Source of the DNA: Candidatus Multivorans sp.
Lineage (GTDB): Bacteria; Acidobacteriota; Thermoanaerobaculia; Multivoradales; Multivoraceae
Reading direction: 5' to 3'
NCBI GenBank assembly: GCA_965220845.1
Contig: CBDCRA010000004.1
Coordinates: forward strand, 603,708-667,707
DNA: 64,000 bases
Positions 56,360 to 58,327 of this stretch are shown here, in pieces; within the stretch, counting starts at the first letter, position 1, and each line of letters begins with the position of its first letter. The notes below the pieces were generated by a model. That model saw nothing but the letters and a program-made list of their open reading frames with translations, ran no database searches and had not been told where the DNA came from. The translations under genes were made by a program, and so were the position numbers.

Positions 56360-57076
56360 CTACCCGCCGCGCAAATGGTTGAAGATATCCTGGCACGCCC
56401 TTTCTATCGTCCTCTTTCCACGCCGCTGCTGAAGAGCACCAAGAACCTTCGTGACTACTTCGGCGTCGTGCTCCACATGAACGACCAAGACACCACGGCA
56501 GTCAGCACCAACATTGTCCGTAACAGCGTGGGCACTTATGACACCGTAGTCCTTTCGCACCAACTCGTCATTTGACATCTGGTCAAGCCTGCTCCAGTCG
56601 TTCTCCTCGCTAGAACGTGCAAGTCGCCCGTCCCACCAAAGAGCCGGGCGACACTCCGCGAACGTCGAACCGATGATGGCGTTCTCGATAGGCGCGTCCG
56701 TTCGTTGCGCGGAAGCGCTCGTCAACGTCGCCCGAAGCTCCAACCGAAGACCCCGCTGCCGACCGGGAGGCCACAAAAGGTACGAGCTCCTCGGAAGGTA
56801 CAGATCTACGACCCAAACCTCGAACTCCCCTCCTGTCAAGTGCCCCAGGTCCGCCAAGAGACTCAGTGCTCGGCCAAGAACCGCCTTGTACTCCGTCGTT
56901 GGACCGTCCCTCCACCTCCCTCTCGGGAACACAGACACTACAATTGCTAGCGCGCACACCGTCACCACAGCCCGGACCCAGATCGGAGTGTCCTCCCCAA
57001 CAAATCCGAGCACGGCGAGAGTGGATGTCGCCACTAGGCGTACCCAACTCCGCGAAAGGAACTGAACCACTCTCAC
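56360..57076 (-). CDS. hypothetical 2-TM N-terminal membrane anchor + ~170-aa cytoplasmic domain (candidate effector)
   Basis: Two N-terminal TM helices (LVATSTLAVLGFV, VRAVVTVCALAIVVSVF). Immediately downstream of the DUF262 gene with a 3-nt spacing. No recognisable catalytic motif. Confidence 0.45.
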   Translation of the reverse strand: MRVVQFLSRSWVRLVATSTLAVLGFVGEDTPIWVRAVVTVCALAIVVSVFPRGRWRDGPTTEYKAVLGRALSLLADLGHLTGGEFEVWVVDLYLPRSSYLLWPPGRQRGLRLELRATLTSASAQRTDAPIENAIIGSTFAECRPALWWDGRLARSSEENDWSRLDQMSNDELVRKDYGVISAHAVTDNVGADCRGVLVVHVEHDAEVVTKVLGALQQRRGKRTIERACQDIFNHLRGG

Positions 57077-57079
57077 CTG

Positions 57080-58327
57080 CTAGCTCCTCGCGGCCGGGTC
57101 GAGAAGCGACACAAGGCGTGAGTACATCACGTTCGATCTCTTGGTGACATTCTCTCCCGTCGCCCCTTCCCGGGAGAAGGACAGGTAGTACTCGAACATG
57201 TCACTCTTGACCCAAGGTAACTCGATCATGACGTCCTCTCTCAACTCGTCGGTCGAAAGCCCGAAGACGCGCGCTTGAAGGTCGCTAAGGTCCCGTCCGA
57301 CCTGCAAGCGCTCCGCTTCAAAGGCCTTGAAGAAGTCGGCGAGCACCTCGGGCTCAGGCCTTTGCCCCTCCGCCCAGAACCTCATCAGGACTACCGAGAG
57401 GTCAACTATCCCCCAACGGGTACGCAGTACCTTCTCGCCACCCGCGGCATCGGCCACCTTCTCCAGCGTGTCAAGAAGAGTCTGCGCCCTGCGAGCCGAG
57501 TCACCCTCCGGATCAAACTCTCGCTCGTCGTAGAGCTTCTGCAGATCAGCTCCTTTCAGGTCGGTCGGGCCCTCGTGAGCCGCCAACGCGAGCACGACCG
57601 CCGAGTGTTCATGCCAGCCGAACCGTGCAGAACGTATCTCAGTCTTGGGCCACAAGGCATGGTCTGCCAGAGCCGTAACGAAGTCGCGCACAGGCCCGGC
57701 GACGGCATTTCGCTTTTCGGCCGCCCTTAGCGGCTCGCCCTTCTGAAGCCGGAGGAACAACTCGCGAATCTCCTCCTCCGAGGCGTCCTCGAGCTTTGAC
57801 ACGGTCATGCTGGCGAACTGAAGCCGATCCTTCGCGTCGTCCGGCAACTGCGACCATTTCTTGCCGCCAAGCTCATCTAACTCATCGAGCTCGTCACGCG
57901 TACGACGAAGAGGGAGTCTGTCGTCTAGAAAGCTCCAAATGGCCATCAAGCGCTGCTTCCCGTCGATCACGTCAAAGAGGTGCGGGCTTCCGTCGGGCAG
58001 TTTACTCAGATAGATCTTCGGGATGTCGAAGCCGCGCAGGATCGAATCGATTAGGAGTGCCTGCTGGGGCCTAGACCAGACACTGCCGCGTTGGTACTCG
58101 GCGTCGACATTAATGCGATCCTTGAGGTCCGCCAGCATTCGGACGCTCCACTCGTTTGTTTCTTTTCTCATTCTTGATATGCCCGAAAGGTCAACAGTGG
58201 ACAGAGAGCCAGGCGCTACGCTCCGCGACATCGCATGACAAGGCGACTCTAAGTTAGCCTTACTCTCACGGCCTGACTCTCTTGTTTTCGAGTCAGACCT
58301 GATACGGTTCAAGGAGTGGCTAACCAT
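57080..58327 (-). CDS. DUF262 (ParB-like DGQQR NTPase/nuclease-superfamily) protein, SspE/GmrS/BrxU N-domain-like, lacking a DUF1524/HNH C-domain
   Basis: DAEYQRGSVW...DVIDGKQRL matches the DUF262 DGQQR motif. 415 aa. The C-terminal half is uncharacterised. Confidence 0.72.
   Translation of the reverse strand: MVSHSLNRIRSDSKTRESGRESKANLESPCHAMSRSVAPGSLSTVDLSGISRMRKETNEWSVRMLADLKDRINVDAEYQRGSVWSRPQQALLIDSILRGFDIPKIYLSKLPDGSPHLFDVIDGKQRLMAIWSFLDDRLPLRRTRDELDELDELGGKKWSQLPDDAKDRLQFASMTVSKLEDASEEEIRELFLRLQKGEPLRAAEKRNAVAGPVRDFVTALADHALWPKTEIRSARFGWHEHSAVVLALAAHEGPTDLKGADLQKLYDEREFDPEGDSARRAQTLLDTLEKVADAAGGEKVLRTRWGIVDLSVVLMRFWAEGQRPEPEVLADFFKAFEAERLQVGRDLSDLQARVFGLSTDELREDVMIELPWVKSDMFEYYLSFSREGATGENVTKRSNVMYSRLVSLLDPAARS

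Follow-up and report, generated by a model that had tools for sequence, protein, structure and literature searches.

A DUF262 protein and a membrane-anchored GAF-domain protein form a conserved gene pair that most likely belongs to the Ssp phosphorothioate system

The 64,000-nucleotide stretch of Candidatus Multivorans sp. DNA considered here, which we refer to as the window, contains a set of ssp genes, whose products insert sulfur into the DNA backbone, with two small genes lying immediately beside them. The ssp genes comprise sspA, encoding a cysteine desulfurase on the minus strand (49799..50983; PADLOC SspA, 7e-121), and three genes on the plus strand, namely sspB (51057..52013; DUF4007, Pfam 4e-84; PADLOC SspB, 2e-103), sspC (52013..55384; PADLOC SspC, E = 0, 1260 bits) and the PAPS-reductase-like sspD (55381..56223; PADLOC SspD, 4e-133). 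Convergent with sspD and 136 bp from it are two open reading frames on the minus strand, one of 415 aa (57080-58327) and one of 238 aa (56360-57076), at the positions given in an earlier note on this DNA. That note had read them as a stand-alone DUF262 sensor paired with a membrane-acting effector.

The assignment of the longer reading frame to DUF262 holds, with Pfam GmrSD_N matching its residues 74-208 (4e-17) and the DGKQR motif present; GmrSD_N also matches all 44 members of the DUF262 subfamily. The reported 415 aa is correct as the length of the reading frame but not as that of the protein, the conserved form of which has 363 aa (57080..58171, minus strand). The true start is most likely the ATG at 58171, given that most homologues begin with MRKETSEWSIR (some begin MLAD...), that all are 347-370 aa long, and that the 52 codons upstream of this ATG show no conservation among them. 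Based on the same homologue lengths and starts, the 5′ extension of the frame (58172..58327, minus strand) is probably untranslated. The database copy of this gene (P0019) is annotated at 352 aa. The dN/dS of the gene, measured against an 80%-identical orthologue, is 0.08.

In an AF2 model of the DUF262 protein, β strands are confined to residues 1-128 and the remainder (132-362) is helical, giving a predicted ParB/Srx-like NTPase domain followed by an all-helical C-terminal half, with no nuclease domain; ParB/Srx folds account for Foldseek matches 2-7. The earlier note had seen no DUF1524 or HNH domain here, and we reach the same result: none of the 44 subfamily members matches DUF1524 in Pfam at E ≤ 1, the model has no strand past residue 128 and hence no ββα-Me element of the His-Me fold, and in the C-terminal half of the alignment neither His nor Asn is invariant at any position. 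Nor does a nuclease-type metal-binding motif stand out among the residues that are invariant across the 44 members (Q27, R28, V31, W32, D70, G71, Q73 and R74). What the protein does have is the N-terminal ParB-like DUF262 NTPase domain of the SspE type, with its DGQQR-type motif for NTP hydrolysis in the form DGKQR, and a Y26-Q27-R28 motif in which position 26 is Tyr in 36 members and Phe in eight. This position is equivalent to Y30 of StSspE, Y63 of EcSspE and Y25 of DndI, the residues that mediate responsiveness to phosphorothioate (PT) in those enzymes (PMC9646914, PMC13251355, PMC11662687); in SspE this tyrosine belongs to a hydrophobic cavity that senses PT. Both YQR and DGxQR are common features of DUF262 proteins at large and do not constitute proof of PT reading.

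Nothing relevant emerged when the two proteins and the profiles of their families were run against PDB sequences, the family profile failing to find SspE, BrxU or DndI at E ≤ 10 and phmmer failing to find SspE at E ≤ 1. PADLOC matched the DUF262 protein to NsnA, PD-T4-2_A and REase_II, with the SspE model absent. The DUF262 family is too distant from SspE for sequence methods, and no cultured model organism is found among the sources of its members.

The downstream gene (56360..57076, minus strand) encodes a protein of 238 aa that is predicted to consist of a hydrophobic hairpin (residues ~11-27 and 32-50) and a GAF fold (residues ~60-238). Two N-terminal transmembrane helices had been proposed for it. 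The second shows strong hydrophobicity in all 12 members compared (Kyte-Doolittle 19-residue mean of 2.1-2.7), whereas the first is marginal, passing the threshold of 1.5 in about half of the 12 and falling below it in the window protein. The flanks of the hairpin carry net positive charge on both sides, as expected of an N-in/C-in hairpin. The rest of the protein does appear to be cytoplasmic, as had been suggested, but need no longer be called uncharacterised, since it is confidently predicted to adopt a GAF fold with a central antiparallel β sheet packed against helices. None of 16 family members matches the Pfam GAF families at E ≤ 5, and the 238-aa protein itself has no match in Pfam, PADLOC or NCBIfam. 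Across the family D91, Y93, P95, W147, D149, H200, R222 and D230 are invariant and C193 and C228 nearly so; of these, D91, Y93, W147, D149, C193, H200, R222, C228 and D230 suggest a ligand pocket or an interface. At 50% identity the family comprises 68 clusters in a set of 1.84 billion representatives. That the reading frame is genuine, which the earlier note had left open to refutation, is borne out by a dN/dS of 0.15 against an 80%-identical orthologue, by its coupling to the DUF262 gene and by the fact that it travels with sspBCD in five phyla. The proposal of a membrane-acting effector and abortive infection fares less well. No effector domain can be recognised in the membrane protein, and the soluble portion is a GAF domain, a type of module known classically for sensing or ligand binding rather than as an effector, so that this part of the proposal stays conjectural. 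No synthase for a cyclic nucleotide or other obvious ligand is encoded by the pair.

The two genes are closely tied to each other. In the window they do not overlap, the DUF262 TAG ending at 57080 and the GTG of the next gene standing at 57076, and a Shine-Dalgarno-like GAGGAG (57084..57089, minus strand) lies inside the DUF262 3′ end, 7 nt before that GTG. In other genomes the genes overlap by 1-4 nt or stand 1-3 nt apart, and the junction is between -4 and +3 nt in every gene-called locus; judged from the sequence, the 238-aa gene is translationally coupled to the DUF262 gene. As to whether homologues of the membrane protein recur beside DUF262 genes, they are found directly downstream in 20 of 21 species-level subfamily loci. 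A 579-aa protein (P0162), the single candidate for a natural DUF262-GAF fusion, was set aside, because it comes from a long-read contig of 2x coverage on which nearby genes are broken, and is probably the product of an assembly indel. Scans for promoters, terminators and tRNAs around the pair gave nothing useful.

The pair is likewise tied to the ssp genes. Among the 21 loci of the DUF262 subfamily in species-representative genomes, 18 have sspB, sspC or sspD within 10 kb of the DUF262 gene, and of the three that do not, two lie on contigs that are too short or are cut by a contig edge. These associations extend over Acidobacteriota, Gemmatimonadota, Latescibacterota, Pseudomonadota and Actinomycetota. 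Two further loci (L089 and L090) have the same arrangement, with the pair beside ssp genes. A search of metagenome contigs with the GAF-protein alignment recovered one locus only, which is arranged in this way. The convergent orientation relative to sspBCD that had been described is a property of the window and not a general one, the pair elsewhere either following sspD directly or flanking the ssp genes on their opposite side, with both orientations seen. More distant DUF262 genes (≤42% identity, 57 loci) are accompanied by neither the GAF gene nor sspB, sspC or sspD; the next-nearest family, from Dehalococcoidia and Planctomycetota (30-42% identity), has different and variable neighbours. 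Viral contigs gave no subfamily member and only distant DUF262 genes, in partial alignments with best-segment identities mostly of 24-38%, and so the cassette is not evidently phage-borne.

The pair had also been presented as the only restriction-side component of the locus, and this does not hold. The same island carries a trio of genes on the minus strand (45107-49580) that may form a three-gene restriction module. It begins with a DEAD/ResIII helicase (47958..49580; Pfam ResIII, Helicase_C and DEAD), followed by a GHKL ATPase of MORC/MzaB-like type (46033..47961; Pfam HATPase_c_3, 4e-20; NCBIfam MzaB, 3e-20, below cut-off). The GHKL reading frame extends to 48048; a start at ATG 47961, which overlaps with the stop codon of the helicase gene, fits orthologues of 645-646 aa. 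The third gene encodes a PLD/HKD-like putative nuclease of 307 aa (45107..46030), which carries the motif LHAKLYFAGDRCLAGSANV, matches PADLOC DrmC (7.5e-9) and ZacB (3.5e-8), and has no match in Pfam. The trio is present in the window, L008-L017, L022, L027 and L028, with remnants of all five genes of the pair and trio in L029. In ten species-representative loci (L008-L010, L012-L017 and L028) it is part of one nine-gene operon, sspA-B-C-D-DUF262-GAF-helicase-GHKL-PLD, with GAF-helicase junctions of 0-4 nt, while in the window, L011, L022 and L027 the pair and trio are shuffled relative to each other. Other loci have something else in its place: L020 has PbeA (6e-178) and PbeC (2e-53), L021 and L025 are probably likewise PbeA/PbeC-like, judging from gene size and position, and the closest relatives, L005 and L006, carry a GIY-YIG and DndB-like set. 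In L023, L024 and L026 no such accompanying module is visible. With the trio in this island and PbeA/PbeC-like genes elsewhere, nuclease activity may be supplied in trans by a neighbouring module. The ssp-linked helicase-GHKL-PLD trio, and PbeA/PbeC-like genes accompanied by ssp rather than dnd, appear undescribed in such pairing. We considered whether the trio might be SspFGH and rejected this, as the components reported in the paper on SspFGH include a Walker-A protein and a C-terminus resembling FtsK, and no helicase, GHKL or PLD domain.

Taken together, these data indicate that the two genes most likely form one conserved cassette belonging to the Ssp PT system, and that in at least five phyla of bacteria the cassette probably takes the place of SspE, the customary defence enzyme. 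The reading that we favour, with a probability of roughly 0.4, is that the pair is a split, nuclease-less analogue of SspE, in which a PT-reading NTP switch is joined to a membrane GAF output. The DUF262 protein would read the PT status of DNA by an NTP-driven conformational switch, as in SspE, and the signal would reach the partner's GAF domain through direct contact, instead of going to a fused nickase. What might then happen at the membrane is speculative: the 2-TM protein could oligomerise and perturb the membrane, leading to abortive infection, or it could tether the sensor and its bound DNA to the membrane. One SspBCD can be shared by SspE and SspFGH, and the pair could similarly act beside a second, nuclease-bearing module on a shared SspBCD mark, that module being helicase-GHKL-PLD here and PbeA/C-like elsewhere. 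The pair is kept while the neighbouring module changes among loci, which points to autonomy from the other modules. Going further, this would be the first PT-dependent defence module with a membrane rather than a DNA output, in which the ParB-like NTP switch distinguishes host from incoming DNA by its backbone sulfur and a GAF-triggered 2-TM protein depolarises the cell or tethers and excludes DNA at the membrane, a specific version that we regard as doubtful at present.

The collinear nine-gene operon is accommodated equally well if the pair is the sensor or adaptor of a five-gene restriction machine comprising the DUF262 protein, the membrane GAF protein, the DEAD helicase, the GHKL ATPase and the PLD nuclease. 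Here, the DUF262 protein would read PT and license or block the helicase-GHKL-PLD proteins, which would damage DNA, and the membrane protein would localise or gate the complex. All five genes also occur together in the shuffled loci and, as remnants, in L029, and the trio would provide the nuclease that the pair lacks, as its HKD motif and DrmC match suggest. We nevertheless consider it unlikely, since the order of pair and trio is not fixed and the trio is missing from L020, L021 and L023-L026 as well as from L005 and L006; with PbeA/PbeC-like genes, GIY-YIG and DndB-like genes or nothing replacing it, it is improbable that the pair keeps up dedicated protein contacts with machines so unlike one another. 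A regulatory function, in which the DUF262 protein is a DndB-like, ParB-like NTP-modulated DNA-binder adjusting PT density or the expression of ssp or restriction genes, with the membrane GAF protein as its signal input or sequestering partner in the manner of an anti-sigma factor, strikes us as somewhat unlikely. To our knowledge there is no DndB equivalent in Ssp systems, a GAF domain is a typical signal-input module, and neither protein has an enzymatic effector domain. The architecture, too, is that of DndB and NsnA, with a ParB-like and a helical DNA-binding-type domain in ~360 aa and no nuclease (PMC12065111). Against this, at E ≤ 1 Pfam DndB matches none of the 44 subfamily members, which have DGKQR where DndB has DGQHR. 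The pair is found in only a subset of ssp loci, as a variable defence accessory would be, and its place is not the promoter of the ssp operon but the 3′ terminus or a site outside the operon, with varying orientation; we also know of no obligate coupling of DndB to a membrane protein.

Two further readings carry much less weight. Some ParB/Srx-fold proteins, such as Osa, do have DNase activity, so the DUF262 domain might itself be the nuclease, merely restrained or localised by the membrane GAF protein. We think this improbable given the lack of a nuclease-type metal-binding motif among its invariant residues, and because in every characterised PT-linked or type IV enzyme (SspE, DndI, BrxU and GmrSD) it is DUF1524 that cleaves and DUF262 that acts as NTPase or sensor (PMC9646914, PMC11662687). 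Long spurious reading frames abound in GC-rich genomes and neither protein carries a functional annotation, which might suggest that the 238-aa frame is spurious or that the pair is carried in a defence island without any relation to Ssp. The low dN/dS of both genes, the confident fold prediction, 32 invariant columns over 30-80% identity and ssp linkage in five phyla despite differing flanking genes effectively refute this already.

The pair bears on how the majority of Ssp systems convert their sulfur mark into defence, since some 84% of sspBCD clusters are without a known restriction partner (PMC8092258). We found no description of the pair in the searchable literature and it is apparently undescribed; with two small genes conserved in five phyla, it offers a clonable candidate Ssp partner. 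As the DUF262 "reader" here carries no nuclease, the action of a PT-reading DUF262 by itself could be tested directly, and the cassette also introduces a membrane GAF protein to DNA-modification-based immunity. If the membrane-output reading is true, Ssp would gain a sensor-effector logic not seen before, and antiviral defence its first GAF-TM effector, none having been described in the searchable defence literature.

Compared with known systems, the pair shares with SspE its genetic linkage to sspBCD but differs in size and content, SspE having 771-818 aa with a DUF1524/HNH domain and no GAF-type obligate membrane partner, while the DUF262 protein of the pair has 363 aa, no such domain, and a partner of this kind. 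GmrSD and BrxU fuse DUF262 to DUF1524, which the DUF262 protein here lacks, and DndI is an HNH nickase that partners Dnd (double-strand PT) and has no membrane partner, whereas the pair is nuclease-less, Ssp-linked and membrane-partnered. DndB resembles it in its ~360 aa, its ParB-like and helical domains, the lack of a nuclease and its place within a PT-modification cluster; it differs in belonging to dnd clusters and carrying DGQHR, where the DUF262 protein has DGKQR, lies with ssp, is coupled to a membrane protein and has no Pfam DndB match. A stand-alone DUF262 and helical domain is also the architecture of NsnA of Menshen (also PD-T4-2_A and Dazbog DzbA), presumed to be the sensor in defence systems of several genes. 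The best match in PADLOC is to NsnA (9.3e-29), although this covers only profile positions 43-218 of 385, the DUF262 core; its partners NsnB (ABC-ATPase/DUF3696) and NsnC are absent from the window island in Pfam, PADLOC and NCBIfam searches, their place being taken by the 2-TM GAF protein in an sspBCD context.

For the membrane protein, comparable small TM effectors with a ligand-binding domain include CBASS Cap15 and 2TM-SAVED, the Pycsar TM effectors and Cam1 and Csx23 of type III CRISPR. These respond to nucleotides from a dedicated cyclase, whereas the window locus encodes none. Phage T4 holin T is a further known protein with which the 2-TM GAF protein may be compared. Noc and other ParB CTPase clamps share the ParB/Srx fold with the DUF262 protein, and Noc links its NTP binding on DNA with attachment to the membrane; it does so in cell division and through its own amphipathic helix, whereas in the pair a separate protein would provide the membrane contact.

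The DUF262 protein of this window is linked to sspBCD and has an obligately coupled partner, a GAF protein with a membrane anchor. Both genes lie in an island of lowered GC content (~0.58-0.67 vs ~0.70 elsewhere; roughly 43 to 61 kb on the GC profile), as minus-strand ORFs of 415 aa (57080-58327) and 238 aa (56360-57076) placed tail-to-tail with a plus-strand operon whose genes PADLOC, with Pfam also run, matches unambiguously to sspB (2e-103), sspC (E = 0) and sspD (4e-133); sspA (7e-121) is divergent and upstream of that operon. In the sequence, the DUF262 stop codon (TAG, 57082-57080) is followed 3 nt later by the GTG of the 238-aa gene, and GAGGAG is placed 7 nt 5' of this GTG. 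The adjacent ORFs described in an earlier note are thus present in terms of their positions, Pfam content and junction.

On gene-called contigs carrying homologues of either protein, the two genes are always direct neighbours that read the same way, and their junctions measure -4 to +3 nt. Among GTDB representatives (one genome per species), all loci being screened with HMMs of both families and with the Ssp and neighbouring proteins of the window, a subfamily of 21 loci has DUF262 proteins at least 51% identical to the query, after which the next-best loci fall to 42% or below. The GAF gene lies directly 3' of the DUF262 gene in 20 of the 21, the exception (L030) having a frameshifted DUF262 gene, and sspB/C/D are found within 10 kb in 18; the other three loci are a 2.8-kb contig (L018), one cut 1.4 kb upstream (L019) and the degraded L030. 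All 57 loci with more distant DUF262 proteins lack both the GAF gene and ssp genes, and two extra loci (L089 and L090) hold an ssp-linked pair arranged alike. Hosts span Acidobacteriota (Thermoanaerobaculia, Vicinamibacteria), Gemmatimonadota, Latescibacterota, Gammaproteobacteria and Acidimicrobiia, every family member being known from metagenome-assembled genomes, and no close member of the subfamily was found in IMG/VR viral contigs.

The sole Pfam match in the 415-aa ORF is GmrSD_N (DUF262, ORF residues 74-208), so the domain assignment made previously stands and it is the length that needs revision. Since homologues measure 347-370 aa, mostly begin with MRKETSEWSIR, and have a confident beta strand in the AF2 model at residues 2-9 counted from such a start, the gene most likely spans 57080-58171 and encodes 363 aa, with the 52 codons upstream of 58171 most likely ORF run-on. 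A hidden DUF1524/HNH domain, which the earlier note had taken to be lacking, was indeed not detected: at E<=1, neither DUF1524 nor another nuclease family matched any of 44 family members, and no invariant His or Asn was found in the C-terminal half of the family. Beta strands in the model (pLDDT 85.8) are confined to residues 1-128 and residues 132-362 are purely helical, which excludes a beta-beta-alpha-Me finger. The catalytic motif (DGKQR) and the QR..VW motif are intact, and sequence and model together show a nuclease-less DUF262 NTPase. One motif position is aromatic in this family (Y in 36/44, F in 8/44); in SspE and DndI, the tyrosine at the equivalent position mediates PT responsiveness (PMC9646914, PMC13251355, PMC11662687).

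The 238-aa ORF has no match in Pfam, PADLOC or NCBIfam. Against the orthologous pair of locus L005 (amino-acid identity 80% for the 238-aa protein and 86% for the DUF262 protein), dN/dS is 0.15 for this gene and 0.08 for the DUF262 gene. The 238-aa family retains 32 invariant columns across 30-80% identity, and when 1.84 billion representative proteins were searched exhaustively with a profile, 68 clusters were recovered, nearly all of ~240 aa or fragments, with no bridge to another family among them. This conservation, together with synteny with the DUF262 and ssp genes, refutes the option that the ORF is spurious. Of the two N-terminal TM helices proposed earlier, hydropathy supports the second (32-50), strongly hydrophobic across the family, and finds the first (about 11-27) marginal; the way charges are distributed would suit an N-in/C-in hairpin whose C-terminal domain is cytoplasmic. 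That domain need no longer be called uncharacterised, as its AF2 model (built on 16 sequences) strongly matches a GAF fold, making it on the model a divergent GAF domain, invisible to Pfam. Conservation is complete or nearly so at D91, Y93, P95, W147, D149, C193, H200, R222, C228 and D230, among others, a pattern of the kind expected for a ligand pocket or dedicated interface.

Three further genes, missed in the earlier note, run divergently from sspA (45107-49580, minus strand): a DEAD/ResIII helicase (47958-49580), a GHKL HATPase_c_3 ATPase (46033 to about 47961) and a 307-aa PLD-like protein (45107-46030) that contains the HKD-type motif LHAKLYFAGDRCLAGSANV and matches DrmC/ZacB (PLD) weakly. 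As listed, the GHKL ORF (46033-48048) shares 91 nt with the helicase gene and is probably too long; an ATG at 47961, overlapping the helicase stop, gives 642 aa vs 645-646 aa in orthologues. This trio, a three-gene operon in the window, is not SspFGH and has the look of a distinct ssp-linked restriction module, so far uncharacterised. Ten species-representative loci (L012-L017 and L028, with L008 and L010 as gene-called copies of L017 and L016 and L009 as that of a further genome) have a single, tightly packed nine-gene operon made up, in this order, of sspA-B-C-D and the DUF262, GAF, helicase, GHKL and PLD-like genes, which in L022 and L027 are permuted around sspBCD.

Acidimicrobiia have other genes in place of the trio. 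Between sspD and the pair, L020 (4915-9943) carries clear PbeA (6e-178) and PbeC (2e-53) homologues and a ~170-aa gene, matched in size and position by genes in L021 and L025; in L002 (11160-16095) and L031, genes of DEAD-helicase/AAA_23 type or of similar size lie nearby, and L090 has an unannotated 6.5-kb gap at the equivalent position. The literature describes Pbe with Dnd, and its pairing with Ssp appears to be new. L005 (17653-20717) and L006 (11106-13830), to which the window's island is most closely related, encode large DndB-like (PF14072) proteins together with a GIY-YIG protein where the trio would be, which may constitute yet another ssp-associated module. No such module is visible within 10 kb in L023, L024 or L026; a small PLDc_2 gene adjoins the pair in L024. 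Because these neighbours swap (trio, Pbe, GIY-YIG/DndB-like or none) while the pair stays, the accessory that these ssp loci have in common is the pair, and the nuclease-bearing modules are variable.

DUF262 proteins without DUF1524 are already known from Menshen, PD-T4-2 and Dazbog (PMC12065111), as are the PT-linked DUF262 proteins SspE, DndI and DndB. Unlike SspE, DndI and GmrSD, which are defined by DUF1524, the window protein lacks this domain; NsnB and NsnC, defining for Menshen, are absent, as are the family signature and dnd context that define DndB. In full-text searches, no paper brought DUF262 and a GAF domain together or described a membrane protein partner of sspBCD. Given these differences and the lack of a matching paper, the pair would represent a new PT-associated, nuclease-less DUF262 module with a new partner. 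Around 84% of sspBCD clusters have no known restriction partner according to the SspFGH paper (PMC8092258).

We tentatively favour, at a probability of about 0.4, an autonomous ssp-dependent module of sensor and membrane partner that replaces SspE. Like SspE, the DUF262 protein would use an NTP-driven switch to read PT status and, having no fused nickase, would signal to its GAF partner instead; a specifically membrane-killing output is about half as probable as the module itself. The DUF262-protein architecture, the sensor-like nature of GAF domains and the fact that neither protein has an effector domain would also suit a DndB-like regulator with GAF as signal input, but the DndB signature is missing, the distribution is patchy and the position relative to ssp varies, and we consider this rather unlikely. 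The nine-gene operons could instead mean that the pair supplies sensor or adaptor subunits to a neighbouring nuclease machine, a reading that sits poorly with the interchangeability of the neighbouring modules and that we regard as unlikely. Cutting of DNA by the DUF262 domain itself seems very improbable.

Some minor observations accompany these data. The 579-aa protein P0162 (L089 5605-7344), which looks like an in-frame DUF262-GAF fusion, was rejected as a natural one: long reads cover its contig only 2x, and sspC and the DUF262 N-terminus are broken there too, so it is probably an indel or assembly artefact. The next-nearest DUF262 family (L032-L044; 400-435 aa; Dehalococcoidia and Planctomycetota) has neither ssp genes nor a GAF partner, and in L035, L038, L041 and L044 its gene is preceded by a 380-aa gene of conserved length. 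The window flanks are syntenic with a Thermoanaerobaculia locus (L001/L011), sharing a PQQ-repeat protein, an RF-1-domain protein and a 79-aa ribbon-helix-helix (CopG/MazE-like) protein; the gene for the last (58730-58969, minus strand) reads in the same direction as the DUF262 gene and lies 5' of it, is 87% identical to a 79-aa gene that occupies the corresponding place in L001, and may be a local regulator or orphan antitoxin. Immediately left of the GC drop marking the island sit tandem paralogues of ~320 aa (41178-42161 and 42269-43216; 62% identical) with signal-peptide-like N-termini and C-termini that both read RYRF, as in outer-membrane proteins. The GC minimum of the whole window (0.58) falls at 44250-44850, in the space that separates the PLD-like gene from the left edge of the island, where small overlapping ORFs on both strands encode hydrophobic proteins without a family match.
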